A stretch of 35,792 nt of DNA from an uncultured Clostridia bacterium. Lineage in GTDB: Bacteria > Bacillota > Clostridia > Christensenellales > UBA1242. The DNA is taken from the NCBI GenBank assembly GCA_904397185.1, contig CAJFOL010000111.1, forward strand, positions 1 to 35,792. Direction: 5' to 3'. The position numbers and the translations under genes were made by a program. This document shows, one piece after another, positions 496 to 35,792 of this stretch. Position 1 is the first letter of the stretch; the number at the start of each line of letters is the position of its first letter. The notes beneath the pieces are model-generated. The model worked only from the letters and a program-made list of their open reading frames with translations. It did no database searches and had not been told where the DNA came from.

Positions 496-507
496 TGAAA
501 GCAACAA

Positions 508-2580
508 TTACTCTGCTTGTTTTCGAGAATACTTATTTGATAAGAATATACTTTGCCCCTTTTCTACAATCAGACCTTGTCTCCTACGCTCTTCATAAAA
601 ATCCGTAAAGTCATCAACAACATCTTCAATTCTTGCAGTTCCATCTACATCCATATGGTTGAAAAAGGCTAATAAAAACACCGGTTTATATGAATGATCC
701 ATATGCATTTTGCGTATATTCTCGATAAATATATCTTTGCGATTAGTATTTGTAATCTCTGTCCATCCAAATTTCTGGCATATACTTTTCACCTGAGATG
801 GCTCAAAATATTCAAATGATCTCGTCTCACTAATTGGAACAACCATATCAGGAATAATGCTCCCTTCTCGTATACATTTACGAATCTGTTTACCGCGTAC
901 ATTGATCCGTCTAATCAATTCTAAGGTAGACAGCATTCCCTCTGTCTTTTCTTGCCAATTAAATAAGTCAATTTGTTCATAATCTGTCATGTGTATCGGG
1001 TAATCAATCAAAACCTCTGGCTTTTCTCCTTTGACAAACAATTCATTATCCCAACGAATATCATGCTTAGAACCAAGAACTAATCCCCCCGGATGATACT
1101 GGGACAAATGAAACAATCGATGCAACGAATACGGACAATTAAACAGTCCAGCATTATCAACAAAGTCAAATACCATTAAAAAATCTTTCTCTGGGTGAGT
1201 TCGCATTCCTCGACCTAATTGTTGTAAATAAATAGTTTTGGACATAGTAGGTCTTGCCATGAACAATACTTGAGTATGCGGACTATCCCATCCTTCATTT
1301 AACAAATCACATGCACAGAGTACGCTAATCAAACCATCTTCATACTCCCTTAATATACGCTTTCGCTCTTTAGTATTTGTACTTCCTGATATACTCTTTG
1401 CACTAACGCCTTTTAATTGAAATGCAGAAGCAACATCATCAGCGTGAGTTACTGAAGTACAGAACACTACCGTTGGTTTATTCTTAACATATTCAAGCCA
1501 TGTATCAATAATCAGTTGATTTCTACTGGGAATAGACACCTTTGACTCTAAGTCTAAAGTATTATATCGAAATCCATTAATTCTTACATCCTGGAGTGAA
1601 ATATTCGTTTTAATTCTAATACAACGCACCGGAGATAATATTCCTTCTTCAACGGCTTCCTTTATTCCTAACTTATGAGCCATTGTCTTAAAAATAGCCA
1701 GCAAATCTTCTCCGTCTGCACGTTCTGGTGTTGCTGTTAATCCTAGTGTAAAATCCGGACGAAAATACGAAAATACTCTTTTATAAATATCGGCCGTTGC
1801 ATGATGACACTCATCAATTATCAAATACCCAAAGTCATCTGGTCGAAAAAGCTCTAACTTATTTACAATGCTCTGAATAGATGCACATATAACAAACTGA
1901 TCTGTTTCATGATATTTACCTACCATCATTCCAACAGATACCTCTGGCCAAAGTTTCCGGAAATTACTATAAGCTTGTTCAACTAATTCATTTGTATGTG
2001 CCAGAAAAAGCGTTCTTTTTCCTAATGATTTAGCATCCAGTACACCTATAGCAGACTTTCCTGATCCTGTAGCTCCCTGGACTAAAGCTATTGTTTGATG
2101 TTCATTACGCATTTGACATAAATTGCGCAACGCCTCTTCTTGGTGTTCTCTAAGAATGAAAACTTTTCCATTTTGAGCCGGCATGTCATCATCAATATAA
2201 AAGAGCGCAGGAGACTCTCCTAAAAAAGTCACCAATTCATCTTTTACCCTTTCAGGTGTTGTTTCAATTTGACGATCTGTCCATCGGTATACTTTCCAAC
2301 CATCATAAACCAAACTATTTTGCTTAAGTAAATCATCTATGTATTTCCCTTCAGACACCTTCTCTGGATTATGCCAAGTTGTCCCATCTATTTCAAAAGC
2401 AACCTTTCCAAATGCACTTTTAATCGCAAAATCAATAGTTCTATGTCGCCCATAGATGTCAACAACTGGATATTGAAGATATACGTATTGACCTTTGCCC
2501 GGGCCAAATACATCACAAAATAATTGTATAAATTTTTCTTCAGCTCCACTTCCCATAAAATGCTTTTGTTTTTTGGCCAT
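508..2580 (-). CDS. DUF559/Vsr-like endonuclease domain fused to an SF2 (ResIII/DEAD-DEAH type) helicase, with an uncharacterised C-terminal domain
   Basis: 690-aa ORF. The N-terminus carries RTIDFAI...VAFEIDGTTWH...GWKVYRWTDRQI. Helicase motifs are GATGSGKS (I), DECHH (II), LTATPER (III) and QQLGRGMR (VI). The C-terminal ~170 aa contains SYKPVFLLAFF. An AGGTGG SD lies about 9 nt upstream of the ATG. Confidence 0.85.
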   Translation of the reverse strand: MAKKQKHFMGSGAEEKFIQLFCDVFGPGKGQYVYLQYPVVDIYGRHRTIDFAIKSAFGKVAFEIDGTTWHNPEKVSEGKYIDDLLKQNSLVYDGWKVYRWTDRQIETTPERVKDELVTFLGESPALFYIDDDMPAQNGKVFILREHQEEALRNLCQMRNEHQTIALVQGATGSGKSAIGVLDAKSLGKRTLFLAHTNELVEQAYSNFRKLWPEVSVGMMVGKYHETDQFVICASIQSIVNKLELFRPDDFGYLIIDECHHATADIYKRVFSYFRPDFTLGLTATPERADGEDLLAIFKTMAHKLGIKEAVEEGILSPVRCIRIKTNISLQDVRINGFRYNTLDLESKVSIPSRNQLIIDTWLEYVKNKPTVVFCTSVTHADDVASAFQLKGVSAKSISGSTNTKERKRILREYEDGLISVLCACDLLNEGWDSPHTQVLFMARPTMSKTIYLQQLGRGMRTHPEKDFLMVFDFVDNAGLFNCPYSLHRLFHLSQYHPGGLVLGSKHDIRWDNELFVKGEKPEVLIDYPIHMTDYEQIDLFNWQEKTEGMLSTLELIRRINVRGKQIRKCIREGSIIPDMVVPISETRSFEYFEPSQVKSICQKFGWTEITNTNRKDIFIENIRKMHMDHSYKPVFLLAFFNHMDVDGTARIEDVVDDFTDFYEERRRQGLIVEKGQSIFLSNKYSRKQAE

Positions 2581-2722
2581 TTATTTTTCCACCTAACATC
2601 ATTGTATCTTTTGAATGTTTTTGACATCTCTATCCGTAATAATGCATATTACATTTTGTGCCCTCAGATATCTGTTAAATTTACTTACATTTCCACATTT
2701 AATAAAGAAACAGAAAGCAATT

Positions 2723-5014
2723 TTATTCTTTTATCATTACCTTTTTGTCATCAAAATCTCTAGCAATTATTTTCTCGAAGTATGTTCTTAATCTAGAACC
2801 TCGTTCATTAAAAAATTGTTCTGTTGGGACTTTAAATTCTACCCCATCAATAGAAACATCTTTATGATAATCATTCAGCATGGTAGTAGTAAATCCATTA
2901 AGCCAATGGCCTTTACACATATCTTCATAATACCCCATTGCTTCGGCTAGTGGTTTATTATTCTTTTCATTATTATTATCACTGTCAAGAATCATCATAT
3001 TTCCCAAAGAATCAATATATTTCTCACGCAATTCATGTAAATCTACAGGAGCAAAATGTTTAGCCTTGTTACTAAAATCAGGATTACGTGCTTCCATATG
3101 ATCCAACTGCAATTTATCTGTCACAAAAGAATACACTGTTTTATCGAAAGTTAATTCTGTTTTTTCATCGTTAATCTTTGTCTTAAAAAGATTGATAAAT
3201 AAGACTTTGACTTTTAGATCGGCAACTCCAGATTTATTATACTGCCAAGTTTGAATCCACTCACGAAATTGCTGTATCATCTTTGATTGTGTTTCAACAT
3301 CTATCATGACGCCAGATGGATTCCATTTTTTCATATAAATATTTTGTAACCCCTTTTTTGCAATTTCTCTTGGTATTTCATAATCTTTGCATAGAAGTGC
3401 GGCTTTCCAAAGTTTAAATGCCAACTCATGAATTTCCCGGTATGCACGGTTGTTCGAATTGTGCTGATAGTCATCTTTTATTGCTGTAATGTATTTTTTA
3501 AACTCTGAAATGTTAACCTCTTTAATTCCTGATGTTTCCATTTGGTTCATAAACTGCCGAATTATGATATTAGTGAGTGCTGGTAATACTCCATCCAATT
3601 TTAATGCATTCAATAAATGAAACGCTTTGTATGTTATAGATACTTGCGGATTATTTTCTGCTCGAATACATGCAACCGCGGCATTTCGTACAGGAATCTT
3701 ATACTCTTCTATAATAATTCTCAGCATCTGATAAACTCTAATATCATTCAATGCTTTTGAAAACTCATATTTAACCGTATTCGATGAATAAATTTTTAAA
3801 TATTTATTTTCTATGATTTCACGATAACGCTGAATTTTATTTGTAAATGTAGATTCATCAGCTGTAAAGTACAAGGTACCAAGATAAGAAATCAATTTTT
3901 TATGGGCATCAGAAAGATCTCTTGTAAACACTTCATCTCCCCAAATCTGATCAAGAATACCAATATTTTTATCAATTATTACATCCAAATCTCCTGATGT
4001 ATTACAATACGCCTTTAAGAATAAATTCTTAATTAACTCCAGGTCATCAATTTCCATTGCTCTATCGTTCAAAACCTCAAACAAAGTATATGCATCTCTC
4101 TCATTTCCGGTCATGATTACACAAAAGCGTACATTTTCCAGAAATTCTTTCATAAAACGCAGAATTTGTCGAGTATTATGAAGTGGTTTTTCTTTCAATT
4201 GCAGCAATTTGTTAATTGCATTAAATTCATATTTTATAGCATTAGTATACTGTAAAATATTTATATCCGTTTTCTCTGTTTCTCCAATAATTTTTAGTTT
4301 CGGGTTGTCATCCTTCGACACAATTACGCATACTTTTGATAATGCTTTACTCAGCGTAATATCAAACGTTTTTCTGGAATATGATAACGCAAGAGTATCA
4401 GATTCTATGAACTTCATTTGCAAATTCTCGTACTCATCAAAATATCTATCAAGATTAGAAAAATCTCTTTCTGGAAGAAAAACTGTTTTTCTATACAATT
4501 CAGCAATATCTGTATAAACCTGATCCCTCTCAGTCTCTTCCAAATCAGATAAATTCTCCATTTTTTCGATAATATCATTACGCATTTTTGAAAAGGCATC
4601 TAAATGTTTACTACCTAATAGACTACCATATATCTCTTCTAAATCCTTTAAAGGTCCATCCAGATTAGATCCTTTTGTGCTAATCATTTCTTCAACATAA
4701 GATCTCTGAAGAAGAAAGAGCAAATAATTGAACAGAAATACCGTAGTAACACGCTGTTGACCATCAATAATATCATAACGATTGTGTATATTAGTATCTT
4801 CTACAAGAACAACAGAACCAACAAAATATTCAGCATTAGCATTTTCCGTTTTATTCTTATAAAAATCGGCTATCAGATTGTTAATTCTCTTTTCATCCCA
4901 ACGATATGGCCGTTGATAATACGGAATATTCACTTTTAGCGGAACTCTACTTTTTGTTCCTATGCTCATACACATCTCCAAAATGTTACGAATCTCTGCA
5001 CCTTTTAAATCCAT
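2723..5014 (-). CDS. GmrSD-like type IV (modification-dependent) restriction enzyme, DUF262 N-terminal plus DUF1524 His-Me-finger C-terminal
   Basis: 763-aa ORF. DUF262 motifs are IPYYQRPYRWD and DGQQRVTT. The C-terminal region carries LQLDHMEARNP ... LGNMMILDSDNNNEKNNKP. An AAAGGGGA SD precedes the ATG. Confidence 0.8.
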   Translation of the reverse strand: MDLKGAEIRNILEMCMSIGTKSRVPLKVNIPYYQRPYRWDEKRINNLIADFYKNKTENANAEYFVGSVVLVEDTNIHNRYDIIDGQQRVTTVFLFNYLLFLLQRSYVEEMISTKGSNLDGPLKDLEEIYGSLLGSKHLDAFSKMRNDIIEKMENLSDLEETERDQVYTDIAELYRKTVFLPERDFSNLDRYFDEYENLQMKFIESDTLALSYSRKTFDITLSKALSKVCVIVSKDDNPKLKIIGETEKTDINILQYTNAIKYEFNAINKLLQLKEKPLHNTRQILRFMKEFLENVRFCVIMTGNERDAYTLFEVLNDRAMEIDDLELIKNLFLKAYCNTSGDLDVIIDKNIGILDQIWGDEVFTRDLSDAHKKLISYLGTLYFTADESTFTNKIQRYREIIENKYLKIYSSNTVKYEFSKALNDIRVYQMLRIIIEEYKIPVRNAAVACIRAENNPQVSITYKAFHLLNALKLDGVLPALTNIIIRQFMNQMETSGIKEVNISEFKKYITAIKDDYQHNSNNRAYREIHELAFKLWKAALLCKDYEIPREIAKKGLQNIYMKKWNPSGVMIDVETQSKMIQQFREWIQTWQYNKSGVADLKVKVLFINLFKTKINDEKTELTFDKTVYSFVTDKLQLDHMEARNPDFSNKAKHFAPVDLHELREKYIDSLGNMMILDSDNNNEKNNKPLAEAMGYYEDMCKGHWLNGFTTTMLNDYHKDVSIDGVEFKVPTEQFFNERGSRLRTYFEKIIARDFDDKKVMIKE

Positions 5015-5352
5015 GAAAATTGTTCCCCTTTCTACTCTTATCTTCTTGTTTTTCCATTATTTCTTCCATCTACATCTGTTAACGTTTTAATTACTCAGTT
5101 TCGAATGTTATGACACATTTCTACTGTTATTATAAAAATACCATCCGACGCAATTTGAAACAAATCTGTATATTCCTAAAATATCATCAATTCATTTTTT
5201 ATCATCCCCGCGTGATTCCCAACCACAACAATAAGACGTAAAACCGGTACATACTTTTGTATTGTAAATAAAATAATCCTTCCGACAAATATTTATAGAT
5301 TAATTTTATAATAATATATTCTTAGATACGTAGCAAATAAAATATATCTCTT

Positions 5353-5419
5353 ATCAAAAATAAAAAGTGGTAGAAAAAAACAGCTAGAACATTTTTACCG
5401 TTTTCTTCACCACCACTTT
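5353..5419 (-). terminator. putative intrinsic terminator downstream of the sigma-factor gene
   Basis: The minus-strand RNA AAAGUGGUGGUGAAGAAAA...UUUUUUUCUACCACUUU forms an 8-bp perfect stem (AAAGUGGU/ACCACUUU) with imperfect extension, followed by UUUUUAUUUUUG. It lies 40 nt after the stop at 5459. Confidence 0.45.
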
Positions 5420-5458
5420 ATTTTACTATCTTTTTAACCGTGAATTTTAATCTACTAA

Positions 5459-6625
5459 TTACAAAAAATCCTGAAGTATCTTGATTTTTTTAGATTGCTG
5501 TAATTTTTTTATTGCCTTTGATTCTATCTGACGAACTCTTTCTCGAGTAACACCCAGCATTTTACCTACTTCCTCAAGCGTTTTTTCTACACCACCATCA
5601 AGCCCATATCTTGCTCTGATAACTTCCTTCTCTCTAGGTCTTAGTTCTTTCATCACGTCTTCAAGAGCCTTTCTTAACGATACCTGTTCTATATTTATAT
5701 AGCCATCTTCATACCAATAAAAAACATCTTCATACCCGTTGTAAAATCGACTTCTTTGTTTATCACTCTTTTCATAATTTACCAAAGACTTTTCATAAAG
5801 ATCCTCAAGAGACTCTATTGGCATCACTTGCGTTATAATATCCTCTGCCTGAGCGGCCTTACAGCCAAGCTTATTTTGTATTAATCCTCGTATCGCCTTA
5901 TCTGTCCATATTTCTTCAGTATCTAGATCTAAGTATCCCTCTTCTTTCATAATAGGATATATTGTAAAATATCCTTCTTTCTTGTGAACCGGATAGTAAA
6001 TCAAGGGTCTCTGTGTACCTTGTGTACGGCTTATATTTTGCAATATCCACAACGAAGCATATGAACCAAAAGGACCACTTGAATCAGGATCATATTTATC
6101 AACAGCAGTAATTAACCCTATACAGGCTTCCTGCAAGATATCCGCTATTTCTGCATTATAAACTTCTGCTCTCTGTAAAGCAATACGAACAGCAAATCTC
6201 AAATGCATTTGTACTGCCCTCTCTCGAGCATATACGTTTCCTTCCTGAATCTGATGCTTTAGCTGATCCATCTCTTTTGTCTGAGGGGGAACAACATTTC
6301 GTATAGCAGTAATAAAATCTTCTAACCCCGGATCAAGTTCTATTACTTTATCAAATATTGCATCATAGTCTCTATGTGCATAGTCATCATAATCGTCAAA
6401 AGATGTATCCGCCGTATCTATAACCGGTGCCTCATCATATACAAGAATTCCTCGAGTTGCAATGGAGCTTGAAAGGTAGTCAATATCTTTAATAGAAAGA
6501 TTCCATTTATCAGCCACATCATAAATATCGTCAAATACAAGAAATCCTTTTTTAGATGACAGTTCTATTAAATTTGTAAGAGCACTCTCTATATTATTAT
6601 TACTATCCATTATCCCACTACTCAT
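5459..6625 (-). CDS. sigma-70 family RNA polymerase sigma factor (RpoD-like architecture, divergent region 3)
   Basis: 388-aa ORF. It has a region 1.1-like N-terminus (LIELSSKKGFLVFDDIYDV). Region 2 reads IADILQEACIGLITAVDKYDP...FGSYASLWILQNISR. The region 4.2 HTH reads TLEEVGKMLGVTRERVRQIESKAIKKLQ. Confidence 0.85.
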   Translation of the reverse strand: MSSGIMDSNNNIESALTNLIELSSKKGFLVFDDIYDVADKWNLSIKDIDYLSSSIATRGILVYDEAPVIDTADTSFDDYDDYAHRDYDAIFDKVIELDPGLEDFITAIRNVVPPQTKEMDQLKHQIQEGNVYARERAVQMHLRFAVRIALQRAEVYNAEIADILQEACIGLITAVDKYDPDSSGPFGSYASLWILQNISRTQGTQRPLIYYPVHKKEGYFTIYPIMKEEGYLDLDTEEIWTDKAIRGLIQNKLGCKAAQAEDIITQVMPIESLEDLYEKSLVNYEKSDKQRSRFYNGYEDVFYWYEDGYINIEQVSLRKALEDVMKELRPREKEVIRARYGLDGGVEKTLEEVGKMLGVTRERVRQIESKAIKKLQQSKKIKILQDFL

Positions 6626-7045
6626 TTCCTACCCTTTTTTATTGTAATTGAAAGACTGCTATCTGTACATCTTTAGCTCAAAACTTTTATTCATCTCAAT
6701 TACATTAACTGCCTGGACTTATTATCAACATCCAGATAATTATCAGCGGGAATTTTATTCTATATCTAATGGAAGCATTTAATGGGTTTTATTCTAAAAA
6801 ACATAATGTTAAAGTATTTTTGTTATTAAAGTTGCTTCAACATTAAAACATTTCGGATTATCCTATATATATTGGCAAATTATTTGCTCATATTAACAGA
6901 CGATCTAGTAACCAATCTACTTCCTTAATCAAAGGTTTTCACGATATCCTCGAAATAAGAAAATTTATCTCCTGCATTGGAATTTCTTATTTCTTAAAAG
7001 CCCTGTTAATGTTTCCATTACGCATTTAACGCATGTCACTGGTAC

Positions 7046-7585
7046 TTATGCGTTTTTCATACATAACCGTAGGATATCGTCACTGCTAATTCCGCTGTTG
7101 AATCTATCATTAAATTCATCAACAAACTCATAAAGCCTGTTCACAAACGCCTCCGGAGTTTTTTCACCTTCAACCAATTTTTCATACAAGACATCAATAC
7201 CGCCTCTTACATAACTATCAAAACGCTCTTCATCGTCAGAGTTCTGACCATAGTGCCTAAAAGCCTTGTCAATTCTCTTTTCTTCATCTGGCTCATAATT
7301 AGAATCGAGTAACATAATCAGCCAAAAATTATACTGTAATTCCTCACTAGAATAAATTACACGATCACCCATGACGCTCTGACTATACACCTGACCTGTT
7401 TCTGGATTCTTAGTATTATCAAGCTCAGCAGTTCTTCCATACAAAAATCCAATCAATGGAGCATTTGTATAAATATCCACATTACGTTCTATCAGCTTTG
7501 CTTTACTTAATTCGTCGAATACTCCTGTGAGCTGATCCACACGAAGAGCGTGTCTCCCCTTGAACCTATATTGTTTATCAAACAT
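7046..7585 (-). CDS. 179-aa protein, last gene of the putative phosphorothioation-associated restriction module (function unknown)
   Basis: The ORF has an AAGGAGGAG SD 5 nt upstream of the ATG and starts 11 nt after the stop of the DndD-like ATPase gene. I recognise no catalytic motif. The assignment is by operon context only. Confidence 0.6.
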   Translation of the reverse strand: MFDKQYRFKGRHALRVDQLTGVFDELSKAKLIERNVDIYTNAPLIGFLYGRTAELDNTKNPETGQVYSQSVMGDRVIYSSEELQYNFWLIMLLDSNYEPDEEKRIDKAFRHYGQNSDDEERFDSYVRGGIDVLYEKLVEGEKTPEAFVNRLYEFVDEFNDRFNSGISSDDILRLCMKNA

Positions 7586-9746: not shown

Positions 9747-11949
9747 AGTTTTCACCCTCCTTCTCAAGCTCTAAATCGTTAAGATGATACGCTTCCTCAA
9801 TGTCCCAGATCAGATTATTTGCCAGCATCGAATTTAATGCTAATCTACCAAATTCCTTAATCCGGGCAAGCTCATTTTTAACCAATGTCTTATCCCTGTT
9901 CGCCTGTTCAATCGTTAGACCTGATACTGAATCAAGAGGTCTGGGAAGAGTAACAAAATCATATATTTCTGCAAAAGGTTTATTATCTGATTTACGAAGA
10001 ACTCTACCTCTACGCTGTATATACTCCTTAGGATTTGTAGTACTTGCAAGTATAAAAGCAGTTCGTATGCCAGGAATATTAACACCCTCATCCAGACACT
10101 TTATTGCTACAATAGCCTGTAACTTACCACCATCCTGGAAATGTTCCTTGATCATAGCTCGCTCCTCCATATTTTCCTCTGAAGTAAAGCGTGCCACACT
10201 CATATCAAGCTCATTGGCAAGGATCTTGGTTACAGCCTCTATCTGTCTAATATCGTTTTCATCATCTGATGATGTATCACTATCATCTAAAACCCTTGTA
10301 GCTCCACAATACACCAAAATATTATTATCATCTTTGTATGGAGTGATTTCTCTTTTCAGAGCTTCGAGCTTTTGCATTGCTCCTGCAATCACTCTGGCTC
10401 TCTTGAGCGCAAGGATTTCCCCACGCTTATTCAATTTATACTTTCCGTGCTTGTCTTTTATCATACATTTGGACATTTCATAAGAAAGTTGTTCATATGA
10501 TTCCAGCTCTAGTTCACTAAGATATACAAGAACCGGATAGTACTTATAAGGAGTCAGCTTATCTTCATCAATTGCCCTTTCCAGTGAATATTCAATACAC
10601 TTCTTTCCAAAGAAACTATACAAAAGAGCTGTTCCCTCTTCATCTCTATGTCTTTCGAGTGTTGCTGATAATGCCAGCCTATATGTAAATCTGTCATCCA
10701 ACCGCTTTGCATAACTTCTAGCTCCAAAATTGTGGGCCTCATCAACAACCAGTAAAATTGGACTTTTAATCTTATCTATTCTCTCTTGAAAATCAGGACT
10801 GGCAAAGGTTACATTAGTTGTCACCACACAGAAAAATCTTTTATCTCTTCTGATTTTCTGGTCTATTATCGCCTTAGAGAATTTCTTTCTCCAATCCTTG
10901 TGGACTAAATCTCCATAGGCAACAATAGGCTTCATGTTAAACTTAACAATGTCCTCAACCCACTGCTCTACCAGATGCTTATAAGGCGCTACGATAATAA
11001 CAGCGAGATCGTCATCAAGGTCTTCCGAAAGCTTTGAAATAGCGCCAAGACCAGTATAAGTTTTACCTGTCCCAGTTGCCATATCAAAGATTCCTCTATA
11101 ATTTTCACCTACCCAAACAGAAATAGCTTCCTTCTGATATTCATGTAGCCTCACATCATTTGGAATTCTTGCCCCTACCGCATCTCCACAAAGGGCTTCG
11201 CTCTCATGCAACATACTACTATATGCAAGCATTCTCTTTTGGAACTGCTCACGGTCAATATCAAAATTAGGTGCTTTTTTCCGATATTTCTCAATAAGTA
11301 CATCAGAAATCTTCGGAAATTCCAAGACCTTAAGGCTCGGCTCAATGTTATTCCACATAGAGTAAAAGGCGTTTTCCTTCAGCTTAACTCTATCTGCCTC
11401 TGCCTCATTCCAGTCACAAAATACATCTATGGTTTCATAATTAATGGACATCGCTGTCATAGACTCATTCATGGATCCCGAAAAGGCTACATGATTACCG
11501 TCTCTATCTTCCAAAATACCCATTTTCTCATGATACATTCCAATCTCATTACCCTGGTCGGTATAAGCAATACGAATGTCCAAGATTCCTTCTGATATAA
11601 GATGTGCCAAAAGGTTCAGACGCTCCATAGAGTAGTAATCCTCATGCTCATCAGACAACTGACGCACAAGTGCACCCTCTATAATTTTTTGTCTATTTTC
11701 ATACCCTTCCTTGATAGCCTGGATATCTTCATCTGACAGATACGGAGAGGCAACTATCTCTATCTTTCCTCCATCTTTTGCCATATCCGCTATTCCCTTT
11801 GATATTTCAACAAGGGCCGATGATGAAAAAAAACCCACAGCACGCTTATAAGATGTTGACTCATGAAGCAATGGTATATAAAAATCCTGCACCACATTGT
11901 CGATCAAGGACCGGTATTCGCTTCTTATTTTCTTGTCCTTTAAGCTCAT
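9736..11949 (-). CDS. PLD (HKD) nuclease domain fused to an SF2 DEAH helicase; candidate PT-dependent restriction enzyme
   Basis: 737-aa ORF. The HKD motif is YHEKMGILEDRDGNHVAFSGSMNES. Helicase motifs are MATGTGKT, VVDEAHN, LALSATLER and QRRGRVLR. An AGGGGGA SD lies 5 nt upstream. The ORF starts 10 nt after the cysteine desulfurase stop. Confidence 0.85.
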   Translation of the reverse strand: MSLKDKKIRSEYRSLIDNVVQDFYIPLLHESTSYKRAVGFFSSSALVEISKGIADMAKDGGKIEIVASPYLSDEDIQAIKEGYENRQKIIEGALVRQLSDEHEDYYSMERLNLLAHLISEGILDIRIAYTDQGNEIGMYHEKMGILEDRDGNHVAFSGSMNESMTAMSINYETIDVFCDWNEAEADRVKLKENAFYSMWNNIEPSLKVLEFPKISDVLIEKYRKKAPNFDIDREQFQKRMLAYSSMLHESEALCGDAVGARIPNDVRLHEYQKEAISVWVGENYRGIFDMATGTGKTYTGLGAISKLSEDLDDDLAVIIVAPYKHLVEQWVEDIVKFNMKPIVAYGDLVHKDWRKKFSKAIIDQKIRRDKRFFCVVTTNVTFASPDFQERIDKIKSPILLVVDEAHNFGARSYAKRLDDRFTYRLALSATLERHRDEEGTALLYSFFGKKCIEYSLERAIDEDKLTPYKYYPVLVYLSELELESYEQLSYEMSKCMIKDKHGKYKLNKRGEILALKRARVIAGAMQKLEALKREITPYKDDNNILVYCGATRVLDDSDTSSDDENDIRQIEAVTKILANELDMSVARFTSEENMEERAMIKEHFQDGGKLQAIVAIKCLDEGVNIPGIRTAFILASTTNPKEYIQRRGRVLRKSDNKPFAEIYDFVTLPRPLDSVSGLTIEQANRDKTLVKNELARIKEFGRLALNSMLANNLIWDIEEAYHLNDLELEKEGENFEC

Positions 11950-27090: not shown

Positions 27091-29634
27091 TTATAATTTC
27101 CCTGTATCTGGTTCATCCGTTCTCCTGACTTCAATTTTATTCTTGATCAGAATTCTATCAAAAAATTTATCCGTGCCCTCGAAAACAGGATTGATAAATT
27201 TAGCTCCTTTAAACGAATCCACATTCAAATTCTTACTGTCTTTGAATATCACTCCGATAAAGCACGTATTATTAAAGTTCGTTTCTGTAAAGTCGCAGCC
27301 GTCAAACTCGGCACCGGACACTGTGCCGTCTGCGAAACTGGCAAAAGCAAAATTACATTTGCGAAATACAGAATAATTAAAACTGGACTGCCCGAGAAAC
27401 GCATTTTTAAATATACAGTCCTCAAAAGTCGAGTAAGATGACAGCATCCCGCTCGCTATGCAGTTTATAAAGGAAACTTTACTGAAAATTGCTCTTGTCA
27501 ATTCGGCTTCTTTCAGTATAACATCCTGAAATGAACTTTCATTCACTCGAGCCATTGTCAGATCAATCCGGCTGCAATCGCTACGCTCAAAGGAGCAAAG
27601 ACTGAATTTTGCCACAGATGCATGAAGCTTATTCATATCCGAATCCTCAAAATTAACCAGACAGCATCTGCTTTTATAGAATATTGCATCTGACAAGACT
27701 GTGCTTCGGAAATCTGACGCACCGATTCTTCCCTGGCGCAGATTTGCCTGTTCCATAATACATCCATGCATGTCACAGGCATATATTTTACTTGAATCCA
27801 TCTGTGTTTTTACAAACACACTCTGTTCCATGCATGTTCTGTAAAATACAATGTCCGTCAGCTCTGCGTCTGTAAAATCGCACTGATTCATCTTAAAAAC
27901 TGCCTCTTCCGCTATTATCCCCCATGTCTTTTTCATCATACGGCTATTATCCCTGTAAAGACAGTTCCGCTCTTTCAGCATATCCGCCTTTTCCCCTTTC
28001 GCTTCTGTCCAGATCAGGCGAAGCGCCTCAAAGCTATCCTTTTCAGGGAAAAGGTCCAGTCTGATCCGCTCCAAAACAGATGATACAAACCCGCATTCTT
28101 TCATATCTCTGTCTTCACCTTGTTTCAGAGTGATCTCTATATCTATAAGCCGTGAAGAAGAAAATTGATTCTTCCCAAGCTCCCCTTTTTCCAAATTGAC
28201 ATTCGCCAGGACAACGCCCTCAAACTGTGCCCGTTTAAGGTCACAATTTCTCAGCTCTGCGCCTGTAAAGTCAACATTTTCAAATGCTGCGTTCTGAAAA
28301 AAGCAGTCCTCGAAAAATGTATTCGCAAACGAGCAATCCTCACTGCTGGTATAATAAAACTCACAGTTCTTGAAGGAAGCCATACCAAAATTGCAGTCTT
28401 TTATACGGTTTCTTACAAAAAGACTGGAATCAAATAATGAAGTTCGAAAAGACGAAGACTCAAAACGGATACCGTAAAAATCAATAAAACTGAATTTTCC
28501 CGACGGGAAAAAGACCTCTAGCTTTGGAAGCATACAAAAAACATAAAGAGAAAGCTGCATCAAGAAAAACAAAAAAAGTGTTCCAATTTCATTTTCTTTA
28601 AGAGGCTCTCTTTCTTTTCTTGGATCCGTCTCTATCTGTACCTGGAGCAGATTCCGTATTTCCGACAAAAGATAATACGCATCACAAAATCCTCCCCCGT
28701 CTATTTTGATCGCCTGCTTTATTCCTAAAACATTCTCATATGGATAATTCTTGCCCCAAGCATGGGCTTTAGCATCATTTTGTTCTACATCAGTATCTCC
28801 ATATACACTTTCTCCATGTTCTACCGCAAATCTTACTCTTTCCGCCATTGATTGCCTGTGCAAAAATCCCTCGCCGTTTTCTGCAAGACAAAACAATATC
28901 TTTTCCCATTCTGAGAATCTGTTAATAAATTTCTTTTTATTGATTCTGTTTACTTTTGTCTCATCCTCGATTTGGAGCCATGCCTCCAGACTTTCAGCCC
29001 CGTTTGTTATTCGATCAATCAATTCATCAAAAGTTTCATTATCAGATCTATCCCAAAGCATACGCTCTCGCTTCTGCTTTAATGTATCAAGCAATTTTCT
29101 CGCTTCTGCGCTCTGTAATTTGAAAAGTTTATCCGCCGTCTTATGAAGCCCTCTGTCTATATCAATACATTTATTCAAAAACCAGGCGGACCCGATCAGG
29201 CATACTCCATATAACACAATAAGAATGATACGTACTTCATCTCTTGAGCGAATATGTCTAAAATAGAACATGCTGTAAAGGCAGATTACAATTCCCATCA
29301 GAGCAAGAGAAGTAAGCATATAGATCCAAAGACTTCTCATTGTTTTATCCCGGTATTCGCGGATCACCACACTGTAATATGTCTTTTCGTCAGACGTTCT
29401 GTCCAGAGCTTCTTTCAAAAACACATATGATGTGATCAGACTTCCCAGCATTGTTGCTATCAATGTAATAAGCATCGGCCACAATGTGCTTCTTTGATCA
29501 TCATAGACTTTGTTTATCTCATCGAACTTTTCTTCACTGATCAGAAAAATCACTGCTACCGCCACTGCAAATATAATAACAATAGAAACCGTAACCTTTA
29601 ATTTGCTACGCTTTTTATCCGTATGCCTACTCAT
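27091..29634 (-). CDS. membrane-anchored pentapeptide-repeat protein (N-terminal 4-5 TM helices, helical linker domain, two pentapeptide-repeat blocks)
   Basis: The track ORF is 854 aa from GTG 29655. The ATG at 29632-29634 (MSRHTDKK) has an AAGAGGA SD 5 nt upstream. Hydrophobic segments include VTVSIVIIFAVAVAVIFLI, LWPMLITLIATMLGSLITSYVF, LWIYMLTSLALMGIVICLY and ILIVLYGVCLIGSAWFL. Pentapeptide-like runs include CNFGMASFKNCEFYYTSSEDCSFANTFFEDCFFQNAAFENVDFTGAELRNCDL and CDFTDAELTDIVFYRT...ANLRQGRIGASDFRSTVLSDAIF. Confidence 0.8.
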   Translation of the reverse strand: MSRHTDKKRSKLKVTVSIVIIFAVAVAVIFLISEEKFDEINKVYDDQRSTLWPMLITLIATMLGSLITSYVFLKEALDRTSDEKTYYSVVIREYRDKTMRSLWIYMLTSLALMGIVICLYSMFYFRHIRSRDEVRIILIVLYGVCLIGSAWFLNKCIDIDRGLHKTADKLFKLQSAEARKLLDTLKQKRERMLWDRSDNETFDELIDRITNGAESLEAWLQIEDETKVNRINKKKFINRFSEWEKILFCLAENGEGFLHRQSMAERVRFAVEHGESVYGDTDVEQNDAKAHAWGKNYPYENVLGIKQAIKIDGGGFCDAYYLLSEIRNLLQVQIETDPRKEREPLKENEIGTLFLFFLMQLSLYVFCMLPKLEVFFPSGKFSFIDFYGIRFESSSFRTSLFDSSLFVRNRIKDCNFGMASFKNCEFYYTSSEDCSFANTFFEDCFFQNAAFENVDFTGAELRNCDLKRAQFEGVVLANVNLEKGELGKNQFSSSRLIDIEITLKQGEDRDMKECGFVSSVLERIRLDLFPEKDSFEALRLIWTEAKGEKADMLKERNCLYRDNSRMMKKTWGIIAEEAVFKMNQCDFTDAELTDIVFYRTCMEQSVFVKTQMDSSKIYACDMHGCIMEQANLRQGRIGASDFRSTVLSDAIFYKSRCCLVNFEDSDMNKLHASVAKFSLCSFERSDCSRIDLTMARVNESSFQDVILKEAELTRAIFSKVSFINCIASGMLSSYSTFEDCIFKNAFLGQSSFNYSVFRKCNFAFASFADGTVSGAEFDGCDFTETNFNNTCFIGVIFKDSKNLNVDSFKGAKFINPVFEGTDKFFDRILIKNKIEVRRTDEPDTGKL

Positions 29635-29669
29635 CTCAATCCTCTTTCCCATCACACTTTATCTCTGGT

Positions 29670-30071
29670 TTACTGATGTCTGAAACAACTCATCCTTGCC
29701 TTGATAACATATATACGCATCTTATCTTTGTCTTCACGCTTCTCTATTTCTCCCACAGTTTGTTCACAAAATGAAAAAATTTCTGTTTCTTTCTCATATT
29801 CCACATATTCCTTTTGCTTTCTCATGTGAAAAATATACAGAAAAACAGCCGTCCCTGCAATCCCAAGCATGACCAGAGCAAGCAAAATAAACAAACACAC
29901 CTGCAAAAGGGATACATTCCTGAAAAATAATATAACTATTAAACCTATAATCACCAACATACCAGCTATGGCGCTTATAGCCGCTATTACTAATGCCCCA
30001 ATAGCCGCTCTTTCGCACCACTTGTAGTAATCTTTTATCGCATCTGTTTTATTTGTGTTTTCCTGCTCCAT
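29670..30071 (-). CDS. small integral membrane protein (2 predicted TM helices)
   Basis: 133-aa ORF. Hydrophobic stretches are AAIGALVIAAISAIAGMLVIIGLIVILFF and LLQVCLFILLALVMLGIAGTAVFLYIF. An AGAGGGAG SD is present. The gene lies 14 nt upstream of the pentapeptide-repeat gene. Confidence 0.7.
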   Translation of the reverse strand: MEQENTNKTDAIKDYYKWCERAAIGALVIAAISAIAGMLVIIGLIVILFFRNVSLLQVCLFILLALVMLGIAGTAVFLYIFHMRKQKEYVEYEKETEIFSFCEQTVGEIEKREDKDKMRIYVIKARMSCFRHQ

Positions 30072-30448: not shown

Positions 30449-30510
30449 ACTACACCATTTTCTTTCAAAATGACGATTTTTAACGCCACAGAACAAAACG
30501 ATCCCAAACG
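30449..30510. repeat. copy B of the mosaic intergenic repeat (left arm joined directly to right arm)
   Basis: 30449-30481 matches 35668-35700, and 30482-30510 matches 35764-35792. The 63-nt centre of copy C is absent. Confidence 0.8.
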
Positions 30511-30673: not shown

Positions 30674-32026
30674 TTAAATCCCAAGATCATCAATAGTAAT
30701 TTCACTCAATTCTCGGTCAGAAATTCCTGCAAGTAATGCCAATCTATTTGCCTGATTGGATAGCGCTGACTCAAACAAATTTCTCATATCTCGTCCATTG
30801 GCAAAGTTCTCTGGTCTATAATTACACAGTTGCTCCAGATAATTTCGTAAATGCTTTTCAGTGTCTGTCGCCAATACCATATCATTGGATTTACAAAATA
30901 CTTCAAATATTTCAAAAAGTTCATCTTTCGAATAATCTTCAAAAAAAATACTCTTATTAAATCTTGACTTTAGTCCTGGATTAGATTCTAAAAAATCTTC
31001 CATTGGGCCGGGATAACCAGCAACAATCACAACAAAATTCTCACGATTATCTTCCATCGCCTTGAGAATCGTATCAATAGCCTCTTGACCAAAATCGCCT
31101 CCGCCTTTTGCCAATGTATACGCTTCATCAATAAACAAAATTCCACCCATAGCTTCATTGATTTTTTCTTTCGTTTTCAATGCGGTCTGCCCCACATATC
31201 CAGCAACTAAGCCCGCCCGGTCAACTTCCACCAATTGCCCCTTTTCCAGAACACCTAACTGCTTATATATCTTTGAGATCAGACGTGCCACAGTTGTTTT
31301 TCCGGTTCCAGGATTACCCAAAAAAACTAAATGCCTTGATACATTCGGCACTTTATGCCCTCTATTTTTGCGAATCTTATTGATTTTTAGCAGATTAATG
31401 AGACTGTTGACCTCTTGCTTTACTCTGGCAAGCCCAATTAAGCTATTAAGTTTGTCCAAAAGCTCTTCAATCGTTTCTTCTGGCTCGTTTAACTCTTCCA
31501 ACTTATTATCCTTATCGCACCGCTCTTTAAGCCGCTTATCCTCAGCTTGCACAGTACTTTCTTCCATGACGCTAGTATCGTTTTCTAAAATACTTTCAGA
31601 ATATTCCTTCATCGTCTTCAACTGTTCTGTAAATCTTTTGGAGTCGATATCTTTCTTGTCATATCGACTTAATGTATAAAATCTTCCTATTTCAACAGCA
31701 CAAGCCAAATACAAAGACGATAATCTCACACCTTTCCCATTCGTCAGCTTCTGATCAAGATTACACAGGATTTCAAATGCTTCCGGTATTGCTCCCACTT
31801 CAGAAGTCGGCTCTATAAAACGCAAAGCCGGGGCTATATATGTCTCCTTGAAAAGCGCAATTCTGTCTTCGGTCCCTGCTATCGAAATGTATTTGATAAA
31901 ATTCAGGATCTCACGGACAGTCATCCCTTCTATATCCCGTTTTTCTCCAATAGCCAAAAGTATGGGCTGTACTGATCTGCAGGCCGACAGGAGATTATCT
32001 AAAGCATTTTTTACATCTACGACCAT
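30674..32026 (-). CDS. AAA+ ATPase of the SpoVK/CbbX/EccA type with an uncharacterised ~190-aa N-terminal domain
   Basis: 450-aa ORF. Motifs are Walker A FLGNPGTGKTTVARLI, Walker B GGILFIDEAY, VIVAGYP and a sensor region LKSRF. An AGGAGGAGG SD is present. The ORF starts 14 nt after the upstream gene. Confidence 0.85.
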   Translation of the reverse strand: MVVDVKNALDNLLSACRSVQPILLAIGEKRDIEGMTVREILNFIKYISIAGTEDRIALFKETYIAPALRFIEPTSEVGAIPEAFEILCNLDQKLTNGKGVRLSSLYLACAVEIGRFYTLSRYDKKDIDSKRFTEQLKTMKEYSESILENDTSVMEESTVQAEDKRLKERCDKDNKLEELNEPEETIEELLDKLNSLIGLARVKQEVNSLINLLKINKIRKNRGHKVPNVSRHLVFLGNPGTGKTTVARLISKIYKQLGVLEKGQLVEVDRAGLVAGYVGQTALKTKEKINEAMGGILFIDEAYTLAKGGGDFGQEAIDTILKAMEDNRENFVVIVAGYPGPMEDFLESNPGLKSRFNKSIFFEDYSKDELFEIFEVFCKSNDMVLATDTEKHLRNYLEQLCNYRPENFANGRDMRNLFESALSNQANRLALLAGISDRELSEITIDDLGI

Positions 32027-32040
32027 AACCTCCTCCTATC

Positions 32041-33075
32041 TTACATCATTGCCACTTGTTTCATTGCCACATCAAATACTTCTCTATATTCTGAAGTGTC
32101 ATATTCTGCAAACGCTTCTTTCAAAGCAGACTCTATACTTTCTTTAACCTCACGAAAGCTTGTCTCCCGAATGTCGTTCAATATCGTTGCGTCTCCAATT
32201 GCAACAATCAATTTCTGATTATCTTCTACTTCCTGACGCAACCCACTAACCTGATCAAGCAATTCAGTATAATAAATATCAACACCTGTTGTTGTAAGTC
32301 TAGTTTCAAACATTCCATGATCCTGCAGCTTTTCAATAAACCATTGCGACAGCAACGTAGAATATACTGTCATCCATTTGTTGTGGGAGGAATGCCATAC
32401 ATTCTGATCTCCAACCACTTCATGGTGATTGAAATAATATTGCTCATCAAAATAACACAACGACACCGTCAACATTGCAAGCAGAGAAAAAATAGAAACA
32501 ATAATGGTATCCCCATCTGTTGCAATATCTTTTTGAAACACATTAATGAGCATTTCCAGTACATTATATTCTGCATCAACCAACTTTCTCATCTTTTCTT
32601 CAGAATAAGGCTGCTGGATTTTTCTTGCATCAAGCATATCTGTATGTTCTGACAGAACCTTTTTAAACTCATATTCCGTTTGTATGTCCGTACCTTGCTT
32701 TATCAAATGTTGAAGCTGAATAAATTGCTGGTTAATCTCTGCGCTCATTTTGTCCAGTTTTTCATATATAATTGCAAAACCGGCACAGGTTCCACAAAGG
32801 TTTAATCCGTTCAGAACAATACTCAGATTCTGCATTCTTGCAACCTGCTGAATTATATTTAGGTTCTTATTTTCAAAAAGATTATTTATACCCAACGCCT
32901 GCAAAGCTTTATCTGCTACTTCCTTCGCCTCATTCTGCGGTAATTCATTTAAAGCAACCTTCTGAAAGTTTTGGATTCTTTTATTTTTTCCTCTCATAAC
33001 AATTTCAAGGACTTTTTTATCATTCAAAAAAGGGGTTAATTGTTCCAACGCATCTACGATCAATGTATCACTCAT
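32041..33075 (-). CDS. hypothetical protein with two hydrophobic segments (unknown function)
   Basis: 344-aa ORF with an AAGGAG SD 9 nt upstream. It has an ATGAGTGA overlap with the upstream gene. Hydrophobic segments are LSIVLNGLNLCGTCAGFAIIY and TIIVSIFSLLAMLTVSLCYF. Confidence 0.65.
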   Translation of the reverse strand: MSDTLIVDALEQLTPFLNDKKVLEIVMRGKNKRIQNFQKVALNELPQNEAKEVADKALQALGINNLFENKNLNIIQQVARMQNLSIVLNGLNLCGTCAGFAIIYEKLDKMSAEINQQFIQLQHLIKQGTDIQTEYEFKKVLSEHTDMLDARKIQQPYSEEKMRKLVDAEYNVLEMLINVFQKDIATDGDTIIVSIFSLLAMLTVSLCYFDEQYYFNHHEVVGDQNVWHSSHNKWMTVYSTLLSQWFIEKLQDHGMFETRLTTTGVDIYYTELLDQVSGLRQEVEDNQKLIVAIGDATILNDIRETSFREVKESIESALKEAFAEYDTSEYREVFDVAMKQVAMM

Positions 33076-33718
33076 GATAATATTCTCCTTGTATCTTATC
33101 TCCTACAATTTTATAAAGTATGATAATGGCAACAATAAAGGTGCAGGTATCCGAACAGTAGAGATCCCTTATATCAAATCTCTTTTTTCTTATCTTTAAA
33201 ATTGTACTCTCCTCATCTTTCAAAGAAGCGATAATAATATCAGGATCAATACATGCAGCAGAAAAATCAAAGTTACTAATTTCTTTATGATTATTTGAAA
33301 TTACTGCCGTATAAAGGCACATTGTTATTCTTGTGAAGTCAATTAAATTGCAAACGGACAATGATCGTACTTTTCTGATTGACTGTGCCTTTTCAAGATA
33401 CTTTCGTGCTCTTGGAACAATAACGGGTTCTGCATCTTTCTTCTTAGACTGCGGTGTTTTAACTACATACTGATCAACAAGCACTTCGATATTATCCATG
33501 TAGGAATTGATAAATTTCTCAAAGTTTTTCCCCGTTTTCAATTCAAGTTTCTCAAAATAGTCACAGATTTTTTCTGCCAGTATATCCTGTGTGATCTCCG
33601 AATCTGAAATTATAGAAAAAGATAAGTACTCTCCAACTAGTGTTTTCTGGAGCAATTGATAAATATCCGGTTCCAATGTGCAAACTGTTGATTTTACAAA
33701 TTCACTGTAATTCACCAC
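33068..33718 (-). CDS. hypothetical protein with C-terminal hydrophobic tail (unknown function)
   Basis: 216-aa ORF with a GTG start preceded by AAGGGGGA. The C-terminal segment is CTFIVAIIILYKIV. I recognise no motif. Confidence 0.6.
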   Translation of the reverse strand: MVNYSEFVKSTVCTLEPDIYQLLQKTLVGEYLSFSIISDSEITQDILAEKICDYFEKLELKTGKNFEKFINSYMDNIEVLVDQYVVKTPQSKKKDAEPVIVPRARKYLEKAQSIRKVRSLSVCNLIDFTRITMCLYTAVISNNHKEISNFDFSAACIDPDIIIASLKDEESTILKIRKKRFDIRDLYCSDTCTFIVAIIILYKIVGDKIQGEYYHE

Positions 33719-33809: not shown

Positions 33810-34799
33810 TTACTCCTCTTTCGGAACTGGAATGTAAACCTGTTTGAGCGGAATCATCTTCCTATATTTTTCACTTAAATCTTCATAGTATTTCAAAATA
33901 AGCTCAACAAGTTCGGTGCCATTGATGCCACGAATAATTGGCGTATTATCAAGATACTTCTGTGCATTCTTCGTATAATTTGAAAGAGTTACAAACAGAC
34001 CATAATCGCCTTCTCTCATTGCGCCCTTCACTGACTGAATTGTCGTTTCTTTAATATCTCCATCCTGACTCTTTACCTGAACAAGAATACGAGGCGGAAG
34101 TTCATCCTTATATGCAGTAATATCTATACCGCTGTCGCCACCATGCGGTGATACGGTTGTTCTGTATCCCATAGCTCTAAGAAGATCTGCGACAAAGCTT
34201 TCCAAGTCATAACCTTTAAGCTGACGGCTTAACTCCTTTAAAATAAAATCTTTTGTACTTTCGATAATGTCATCTGCTGTTGCACCAACACTCTCATCCT
34301 CCGAATCAGAAGAATAGTTCTTCTTGAAATCCTTGTCAAGTGCGCCAAGATACTCATCTGCATAATTTTTTACAGAAAACAAAGACATTGCTGATTCAAT
34401 CTCATAAAGCGCCCCCTGAGAAAACACCATCCTCGGAAGGTGTTTCAACCACTTTACTTTTCTTGTCTGTACATATTCAACTTGTGTTGAATCATATACA
34501 TATCCACCTTCAACAACTCCGATATTTACTTCCCGGTTACTCTTTGAAGGGAATACAACATAATCGCCAATCTGCATTTCATAGCAGAATCGATAAAGCA
34601 TTCCTGCACCGGTTGCAATATTTCCTTTCTTCGCATCTGGATAAACCTGTGTATATTTTTCTTTAAAGGCATCTCTGTTTGCATTAATGCAGCTAAGGTC
34701 TCCCATAGCACTCCAGCCGATTGCAATTACATTATTCCTGAGAAACAGATTATCATCCTGCGTATGTATTCCCTAGATTCTTATTTCATCATTTGTCAT
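33810..34799 (-). pseudogene. Mrr-family (Mrr_cat PD-(D/E)XK) restriction endonuclease gene interrupted by an in-frame TAG at codon 9; the longest intact ORF is 33810-34706
   Basis: ATG 34797-34799 has an AAAGGAG SD 7 nt upstream and reads MTNDEIRI, then TAG (34773-34775), then GIHTQDDNLFLRNNVIAIGWSAMGDLS in the same frame as the 298-aa track ORF. The C-terminal catalytic region is GGDSGIDITAY...ILVQVKS. Confidence 0.7.
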
Positions 34800-34882: not shown

Positions 34883-35560
34883 CTAATCTATGTTTCCTTT
34901 TTCAAATAATTCATTAAATGATATCAGATTCTCCTCAAAATCATTTGCTTTAATTTTATTATTCCAACTTAAAATTTCTTCAGCCAGATCGATCTGGAAA
35001 TCATTTCTGTTTTCTATGAATTTTTCATAGATTTCATCAAATATATTTTTATAATACATCTGCTGACAGGAGCAAATCATGTATTCCTTAAAGCTCAATA
35101 ATTCCTGAACTTTAGTAGGCCATTCACACCAATTATCAGCCATATATTTCAAAAACCATGGCCATAGTTCATTTAAATTTCTATGTATCATTTGCAAGTT
35201 TGGTCCATAATTCTTAGAAACAATAGTTCTTGGAACAGGTGCAAAATTTCCAATTGTATGATATATTGCTTTAAATTTCAAAGCACCATTATTATAATTA
35301 TAAACTTCAGCTTGGTACTTAGGCTGACACTTATTAGGATTATTCATAATATCGAACAAAAAATCTTTTTCAATATTATTCTTTTTAACACTAATTGCAA
35401 TTCTATCATTAGGCTTAATCATTGCTTGAAAGCCATTTTGACCAAACATTTCCACAAAAACGCTCTTTGACAATTCTGTTTGCTCATATCCAATTGTTTC
35501 ATCATTTCTCGCATAACTGTCATCCTCGAAATTATAATCCCATGGTATAGCATCCTTCAT
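34883..35560 (-). CDS. hypothetical protein (unknown function), first gene downstream of repeat copy C
   Basis: The track ORF is 251 aa from TTG 35638. ATG 35558-35560 (MKDAIPWDY) has a GAGGA SD 5 nt upstream, giving 225 aa. I recognise no motif. Confidence 0.55.
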   Translation of the reverse strand: MKDAIPWDYNFEDDSYARNDETIGYEQTELSKSVFVEMFGQNGFQAMIKPNDRIAISVKKNNIEKDFLFDIMNNPNKCQPKYQAEVYNYNNGALKFKAIYHTIGNFAPVPRTIVSKNYGPNLQMIHRNLNELWPWFLKYMADNWCEWPTKVQELLSFKEYMICSCQQMYYKNIFDEIYEKFIENRNDFQIDLAEEILSWNNKIKANDFEENLISFNELFEKGNID

Positions 35561-35655
35561 ACTTTTCCTCGATCTAGTTTGATTATATTTATTCAATATT
35601 GTAATCTTCGATAACACTTTAGTTTCTGGCTGTTCCAAGATAATTATAGTATTTT

Positions 35656-35792
35656 ACTACACCATTTACTACACCATTTTCGCAAAAAATGACGATTTTT
35701 GACATCTCCAGACAAAAAGTAAGAACCCGCAAAAACCTTGTAAAATAAGGCTTTACGGGCTCTGACGCCACAGGACAAAACCACCCCAAACG
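35656..35792. repeat. copy C (fullest) of the mosaic intergenic repeat, with an internal 12-bp tandem duplication; runs to the window edge
   Basis: ACTACACCATTT occurs twice in tandem (35656-35667 and 35668-35679). The copy has a left arm (35668-35700), a centre (35701-35763) and a right arm (35764-35792). Confidence 0.8.

Follow-up and report, generated by a model that had tools for sequence, protein, structure and literature searches.

A conserved and rare three-gene cassette joining a candidate JukB-like effector to a CbbX-clade AAA+ ATPase

The Juk (jumbo-phage killer) system consists of the sensor JukA and the pore-forming effector JukB (bioRxiv 10.1101/2022.09.17.508391; PMC13434031, PMC13282480). 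JukB is reported to be a pore-forming tetramer that is recruited by JukA and permeabilises liposomes (PMC13434031, PMC13282480). Another described arrangement is found in the Type III-A CoCoNuT extensions, in which a SpoVK-family AAA+ gene adjoins the gene of a bacteriocin-like glycine-zipper (small-xxx-small) protein in a conflict-system context (PMC11090510). Here, a cassette of three genes, named A (216 amino acids, aa), B (344 aa) and C (450 aa), is compared with these systems. It lies on the minus strand of a contig of an uncultured Clostridia bacterium (CAJFOL010000111.1), whose whole stretch of 35,792 nucleotides (nt) is called the window and provides the coordinates used throughout, unless another locus is named. 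The cassette is a conserved, co-inherited, rare and horizontally moved unit. With a probability of about 0.5, it is a mobile anti-phage or anti-mobile-element cassette with a JukB-like membrane effector, and a role in defence or conflict is more likely than this specific mechanism.

Three coupled open reading frames (ORFs), with an overlap between the first two and a short spacer before the third, had been described in the initial annotation of the window, and all of these features can be read in the sequence, on the minus strand:

33068..33718, minus strand: gene A, ORF of 216 aa (215 aa if the start is the GTG at 33715)
32041..33075, minus strand: gene B, ORF of 344 aa
30674..32026, minus strand: gene C, ORF of 450 aa
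33068..33075, minus strand: A/B overlap of 8 nt, ATGAGTGA, in which the stop of A is shared with the start of B (translational coupling)
32027..32040, minus strand: spacer of 14 nt between B and C, GATAGGAGGAGGTT, with the strong ribosome-binding site of C, followed by the ATG of C

Judged from the sequence, A probably starts at the second GTG (33715; 215 aa, MNYSEF...), since this start agrees with the homologues and with the spacing from the ribosome-binding site AAGGGGGA. The cassette A-B-C is 3.0 kb in size and is intact in cultured strains.

Protein B and JukB are about equal in size (344 aa and a model of 323 positions, respectively), and in both Juk and the trio a small partner gene is found in tight coupling with that of the effector. 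The JukB model of PADLOC (PDLC04114) matches residues 71-144 of B at 5e-10, at model positions 87-157 of 323 (DNA 32650-32865), and in the family this match extends over the first hydrophobic helix and the next helix. It is obtained with 40 of 40 tested members of the B family, with a best value of 1.8e-12, and also with most of the distant members, and it is always located around the first hydrophobic helix; no JukB was detected in control genomes. JukB-like proteins of Chloroflexota share the layout of B, which comprises an N-terminal hairpin with a conserved Arg, a linker, a hydrophobic helix and a helical domain. A survey of 400 Chloroflexota genomes gave only partial JukB-like proteins, none of which matches any PDB chain, and three of them served as the hhalign partner of B.

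The trio also differs from Juk. Neither a Cbp3/Ubiq_cyt_C_chap (PF03981) signal nor a DUF3944 signal is seen in protein A, which matches no fold either, and the JukA-type domain PF03981 is absent in eight carrier genomes, with detection in the control genomes. The trio has a third gene, for an AAA+ ATPase of the CbbX clade by sequence, whereas Juk has none. It is carried for the most part by Gram-positive anaerobes of the gut and mouth, whereas Juk was described from proteobacteria, cyanobacteria and chloroflexi; nucleus-forming jumbo phages, which are the target of Juk, are not known for the hosts of the trio. In addition, the match of B covers less than 1/3rd of the JukB model, and B is no more than a putative homologue of JukB. 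Since the defining JukA sensor was searched for and is absent, an assignment of the trio to Juk was rejected and it is not filed under that name. JukA itself combines with varied effectors, which provides a precedent for modular re-pairing, and the most fitting description of the trio is a Juk-like effector within another design of three parts.

Other systems share single features with the cassette. The first hydrophobic helix of B has a small-residue pattern comparable to that of the glycine-zipper protein of CoCoNuT, a resemblance of design that was set against the published description only. In contrast to C, the CoCoNuT ATPases are tandem, CDC48-like and flanked by VWA genes (PMC11090510). 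Protein C resembles CbbX (the red-type Rubisco activase), SpoVK and EccA in its Walker A and B motifs, its pore-loop Tyr and its AAA_lid_6 lid, but it has a private N-terminal domain of 140 aa where EccA has a TPR domain, and its operon linkage is to A and B, outside any context of Rubisco, sporulation or ESX. Among the PADLOC systems that include AAA+ proteins, IetAS and others (IetA, DolB, PDC-M37B) give weak partial matches to C (E 1e-9 to 4e-6). However, these cover only the generic P-loop region, no IetS protease or other partner is present, and A and B are unrelated to the components of those systems. No catalogued system in PADLOC-DB 2.0 (2023) matches the trio, as A has no consistent match, B matches JukB in part and C matches as a generic ATPase. 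This is in line with the earlier failure to assign the trio to a named defence system. The trio is also unnamed in Pfam 2025, NCBIfam 2026 and PHROGs, and no description of it was found in the literature on SpoVK, CbbX or EccA with defence terms.

Conservation and horizontal transfer

Relatives of B form 441 clusters at 90% identity, nearly all of 341-349 aa, and an exhaustive profile search yielded 339 representatives at 50% identity. In a pattern scan that covered a single genome for each GTDB species, 60 loci were obtained, in Streptococcus, Enterococcus, Lachnospiraceae, Oscillospiraceae, Acutalibacteraceae, Erysipelotrichaceae, Mogibacterium, Bifidobacterium merycicum, Anaerolineaceae, and one Prevotellaceae bin. 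In about 50 of the 60 loci, which represent Bacillota, Actinomycetota and Chloroflexota, A-B-C occur in this order with a full-length C that includes its N-terminal domain. Of the 42 trios that are intact, 28 have an A/B overlap of exactly 8 nt and all have a gap of 8-22 nt from B to C; relative to the proteins of the window, their median identity is 43% in A and 54% in both B and C. The recurrence of this order and coupling in about 50 loci of several phyla is far beyond chance, and the conservation of the trio in other genomes, on which the initial annotation had made its module depend, is thereby established.

The third gene is less constant. Genes A and B occur without C in three species (L029, L049, L053), and the N-terminal domain of C was found nowhere in these genomes, with positive controls detected. 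Since three species keep A and B without any C, this protein appears to be an accessory regulator and not an obligatory core part. The proposed partnership of the AAA+ protein with A and B thus holds for the co-inheritance in about 50 of the 60 loci and fails in the three species that have A and B alone. A distant variant in an Erysipelotrichaceae bin (L059, 6271-9581) encodes an A-like protein (224 aa), a B-like protein (348 aa), and then a 524-aa protein with a C-terminal HNH nuclease domain, which replaces the AAA+ ATPase. Moreover, B or C is frameshifted or truncated in L001, L010, L054, L056, L060 and L089, and such frequent disruption is the turnover expected for costly accessory genes.

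The distribution of the cassette is sparse. B was detected in 5 of 301 species genomes of Streptococcus. The query genome is its only carrier among 301 genomes from the family of the window, and likewise among 401 genomes of a Bacillota sample. A word-indexed search with the N-terminal domain of C returned five proteins only, which are too few for a measure of co-occurrence, and the contigs of two distant B relatives are too short to show gene context.

The tree of B conflicts with taxonomy. Bifidobacterium merycicum DSM 6492 is placed within a clade of Lachnospiraceae and Oscillospiraceae (branch 0.05), Enterococcus columbae is paired with one Lachnospiraceae (support 95), and an Anaerolineaceae bin is paired with an Oscillospiraceae bin (support 100). 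Two of these incongruent carriers are cultured isolates. The window assembly is a 1.19-Mb bin of 128 contigs, in a family with genomes of 0.8-1.2 Mb, and the taxonomic placement of this bin is therefore uncertain. As a separate observation, B is absent from 300 relatives of the window assembly, and the window contig may have been mis-binned.

Features of the three proteins

Protein B is composed of an N-terminal beta-hairpin with the invariant residues E24 and R28, a segment of residues 43-132, and a C-terminal helical bundle. Its main features are as follows:

32764..32826, minus strand: residues 84-104 of B, first hydrophobic helix, rich in Asn, Gly and small residues (LxxxLNGLNLCxTCAGFAIxY), core of the JukB-like match
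32449..32505, minus strand: residues 191-209 of B, second hydrophobic helix, conserved in the family
32374-32451, minus strand: invariant columns of B, F209-D210-E211-x-Y213 ... W227-H228-x-x-H231-x-x-W234

The family means of the 19-residue Kyte-Doolittle score are 1.60 for the first helix and 1.64 for the second (2.34 in the window protein). The two hydrophobic segments that had been noted in B are thus both conserved across the family, at a level that is borderline for a transmembrane helix. The AlphaFold2 model of B has a predicted local distance difference test (pLDDT) score of 63 overall; residues 130-340 are modelled better, and the C-terminal helical domain reaches mostly ~70-95. The second hydrophobic helix is modelled within a long helix of residues 188-221 (block-mean pLDDT ~78-90). 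The invariant polar cluster of the family comprises FDExY ... WHxxHxxW, QD and D266. B has no PDB match by sequence or fold, and its best Foldseek matches are designed helical repeat proteins. In the Foldseek comparisons of A and B with PDB, and of A with BFVD, nothing scored below E 0.02.

Protein A is of fixed length in its family (213-217 aa), no fused variants occur, and three motifs are conserved:

33548-33577, minus strand: motif AEKxCDYFEK of A
33386-33415, minus strand: motif PRARKYxxKA of A
33311-33340, minus strand: motif DYSRIMMCLY of A

The AlphaFold2 model of A is confident (pLDDT 93; predicted template modelling score 0.89) and is helical with one small beta-hairpin. A profile search found no match among PDB sequences, and the best Foldseek values are E 0.57 (PDB) and 1.2 (BFVD), which is no fold match. 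There is likewise no consistent PADLOC match across 41 members; a weak match to 'Unk_02' occurs in one of the 41 and was dismissed as chance. A relation of A to the N-terminal domain of C was rejected at an hhalign probability of 0.5%. The absence of a recognisable domain in A and B, as first reported, remains valid with respect to Pfam, NCBIfam and PHROG families, whereas the PADLOC JukB match of B departs from it.

A hydrophobic tail of A had been taken as a membrane feature. The C-terminal run is only ~13-15 residues long, is hydrophobic on all faces, has a family 19-residue Kyte-Doolittle mean of 1.36, and lies within the compact, confident model. For its shortness and this position, a core helix is the likelier reading of this run, and a short membrane anchor the less likely one. 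The model thus suggests that A is probably soluble, and the earlier description of two membrane-associated proteins was overstated for A.

Protein C is divided into three regions:

31607..32026, minus strand: residues 1-140 of C, N-terminal domain, private to the C family and moderately conserved
31469-31606, minus strand: residues 141-186 of C, acidic linker, variable
30674..31468, minus strand: residues 187-450 of C, AAA+ module (PF00004 2.9e-16; PF17866, AAA_lid_6, 2.6e-14)
31295-31318, minus strand: residues 237-244 of C, Walker A GNPGTGKT, nearly invariant in 50 homologues
31184-31204, minus strand: pore-loop AGYVGQT of C, aligned with the pore-loop region of CbbX, with the Tyr nearly invariant in 50 homologues
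31118-31141, minus strand: residues 296-303 of C, Walker B ILFIDEAY, nearly invariant in 50 homologues

Both nucleotide-binding motifs are present, as had been noticed, and the single AAA+ module behind an N-terminal region begins at about residue 187, after a domain of ~140 aa and the acidic linker. The N-terminal domain has no Pfam match in 10 homologues and no PDB sequence match. Residues 187-448 match the whole of CbbX (PDB 3zuh/3syl) at E 6e-56 and EccA1 (9lur) at 7.5e-51, and on this sequence evidence C is assigned to the CbbX/SpoVK/EccA clade of AAA+ ATPases. C was rejected as SpoVK, CbbX or EccA proper, as it scores below all three NCBIfam equivalog cut-offs (TIGR02881, 291 vs 423 bits; TIGR03922, 240 vs 467 bits; TIGR02880, 232 vs 459 bits) and its carriers include non-sporulating genera.

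Genomic surroundings

Gene neighbourhoods labelled with Pfam families place the cassette in eight distinct settings:

Setting 1: prophage end (holin, CHAP lysin), with the cassette directly after two serine recombinases
Setting 2: island with DUF7862-4, BrxL, cysteine desulfurase and WYL upstream, and HTH genes, PemK and an integrase downstream
Setting 3: island of the type of setting 2 with a Macro/NADAR gene, on an element with RepA_N and ParB
Setting 4: large proteins of no assigned role on one side, and a Schlafen-type helicase, NUDIX and PAPS-reductase/DUF4007 phosphorothioation genes on the other
Setting 5: plain insertion (L069) amid housekeeping genes (transporter, NAD-kinase/RecN) with no mobile-element genes
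Settings 6-8: near-identical relatives of the window, with a constant block and variable flanks

The constant block of settings 6-8 consists of a 251-aa protein gene (U251), an Mrr-type nuclease gene and A-B-C, and its variable flanks carry helicases, Abi_alpha, a D12 methylase, an ORC/Cdc6-like protein and type I restriction genes. In addition, 231 flanking proteins of 47 other loci were tallied, for a qualitative view of enrichment, and ordinary metabolic genes occur among them. Restriction and BREX genes in this tally are GmrSD (3), BrxL/PglZ, and type I, III and IV restriction; further entries are Schlafen helicases (2), reverse transcriptases (2), PbeA, AbiLi and HEC-05/06. The PADLOC candidates PDC-S01/S02/S07/S41/S72 are also found, together with seven XRE-type regulators and two S24 peptidases. 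The cassette is therefore defence-island cargo in the operational sense, as it is sporadic, transferred, and recurrently accompanied by defence or mobile-element genes. Most of its locations are in defence islands or mobile elements.

In the window itself, the trio is adjoined by the following features:

33810-34799, minus strand: Mrr-type nuclease gene (PADLOC PDC-S02, 1e-126), adjoining the trio
34883-35638, minus strand: gene of the 251-aa protein U251, head of the block, with a weak JetD match (E 1.8e-4)
30449-30510 and 35656-35792: repeat copies labelled B and C, bracketing the block U251-Mrr-A-B-C

The Mrr gene beside the trio is broken, as had been stated, by a change of TGG to TAG at codon 9 (loss of a Trp) relative to the intact 329-aa copy (DUF8426 and Mrr_cat) in near-identical contigs. 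It is either a pseudogene or restarts at Met32 to give a 298-aa ORF. U251 has no Pfam, NCBIfam or PHROG family; it precedes the Mrr gene in every close relative, and a relative with 31% identity is located upstream of the trio in a Streptococcus locus (L015). A five-gene unit U251-Mrr-A-B-C was considered and rejected, since, outside the lineage of the window, U251 and Mrr are found with the trio at just two loci. The position of the trio between two repeat copies, which had been pointed out for the window, was seen again in all five related contigs (L088-L092, ~6326-6452 and 11603-11644) despite their different flanking modules, and L091 and L092 have additional repeat copies farther upstream. 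The repeats resemble boundaries between modules, or joints of recombination, in a defence island that has been shuffled.

Two further neighbourhoods were recorded. Downstream of the trio, the minus strand of the window (27091-30071) encodes two proteins. One has 133 aa and two transmembrane helices; the other has 854 aa, pentapeptide repeats and a membrane anchor, and gives a sub-threshold match to HalA, the Hailong effector (NF051894, 6.6e-15; cut-off 250 bits). In L072-L074, four unannotated genes (~1300, 795, 152 and 220 aa; positions 1-7279), for which no Pfam match was found, lie directly upstream of the trio, and a Schlafen-type helicase and Ssp-like phosphorothioation genes lie downstream. 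These four upstream genes may form another unnamed system.

Possible roles of the cassette

By analogy with the pore-former JukB, B would be a membrane effector, in which the hydrophobic helix rich in Asn, Gly and small residues could drive oligomerisation and membrane insertion. A would be a sensor or adaptor that is made in a fixed ratio with B via the overlapping stop and start codons, and it may hold B inactive or recruit B on an invader cue. A would thereby fill the role of the JukA sensor, which the carrier genomes lack. C would be a hexameric remodeller of the CbbX type, whose private N-terminal domain would dock on A or B. The pore-loop Tyr of C may thread a terminal tail and so release or activate B; it is more likely, however, that C would dismantle and reset A-B complexes or B oligomers. 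The cassette might even be an immune system of a new type, with a JukB-like pore-former that was re-paired with a new-fold sensor A and is armed or disarmed via tail threading by C, a AAA+ unfoldase of the Rubisco-activase type; this is a tentative idea with the odds against it.

Several observations weigh against a defence cassette with a JukB-like membrane effector. The likeness to JukB is limited to ~75-110 residues around the hydrophobic helix, and the hhalign probability with the JukB-like proteins is 66% in one alignment (E 5.5e-5, 110 columns) and 10% in another. In sequence terms, this likeness could reflect a shared composition and not common descent. The model of B is poor in just this region (pLDDT <50, residues 43-132). 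The hydrophobic segments are only borderline transmembrane, and the second is contained in a long helix of the helical domain. No B relative was found in isolated phages or plasmids (tblastn), in a scan of IMG/VR or in PHROGs, so that the vehicle of mobility is visible only in metagenome contigs. Moreover, many loci are from metagenome bins and may be mis-binned, some loci lie amid housekeeping genes (L069), many Pfam matches in the flanks are ordinary metabolic ones, and the enrichment of defence genes is qualitative.

The cassette could act in defence with no membrane step. In this case, B would be a soluble helical enzyme or ligand-binder that uses the polar cluster D149, Y157, E159, R163, D210, E211, Y213, W227, H228, H231, D252 and D266, or C would be the effector and unfold a phage protein that A and B present to it. 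Motors of the CbbX clade thread specific protein substrates, and the many invariant acidic, His and aromatic residues of B are in its better-modelled helical domain. The modelled position of the second hydrophobic helix and the borderline hydrophobicity of B also agree with a soluble protein. However, distant members of the B family have lost the histidines of WHxxH, whereas the hydrophobic helix and the N-terminal Arg persist. The only consistent family match of B is the pore-former JukB, and no known enzyme fold is matched. In addition, the persistence of A and B without C in three species means that C cannot be the sole effector. Defence with no membrane step is considered unlikely.

More doubtful still is a selfish module that serves a mobile element, either as an addiction system of the toxin-antitoxin type (B toxic, with A or C as the antidote) or in superinfection exclusion by a prophage or island. 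The cassette is found at a prophage end by recombinases and on islands with an integrase and PemK or with RepA_N and ParB, A and B are translationally coupled as tightly as in toxin-antitoxin pairs, and B or C is often disrupted, all of which would suit such a module. On the other hand, the cassette also stands alone between housekeeping genes with no mobile-element genes, it is found on none of the sequenced plasmids or isolated phages, and in the lineage of the window it is a single cassette in a series of restriction and Abi modules. This explanation also overlaps with a mobile defence cassette, as one cassette could serve addiction and defence alike.

An accessory housekeeping or stress module, for example in membrane stress or protein quality control with the AAA+ protein remodelling a membrane-associated helical protein, is highly improbable: CbbX, SpoVK and EccA all act in non-defence processes and several flanks hold metabolic or transport genes, but the prevalence of ~0-2% of species per clade, the identical architecture across phyla, the conflict of gene tree and taxonomy, the recurrent defence and mobile-element neighbours, and the frequent pseudogenisation argue against it, and the sporulation or secretion role first considered as an alternative finds no mapping, since the carriers in Streptococcus, Enterococcus and Bifidobacterium are non-sporulating and a SpoVK-type role in sporulation is thus ruled out.

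A mobile defence cassette with a JukB-like membrane effector would have several consequences. Protein A, with a compact and confident model and no detectable structural relative, is possibly a new fold with a sensing function. If the re-pairing of a JukB-like pore-former with A and C is true, Juk-type membrane attack would be extended to Gram-positive bacteria, and a first defined immune role would be assigned to the CbbX/SpoVK clade. Should the cassette protect against phages, JukB-type effectors would work without JukA and outside Gram-negative bacteria, and the gut and oral Firmicutes, whose defence repertoire has been explored far less than those of E. coli and Pseudomonas, would gain an unnamed system.

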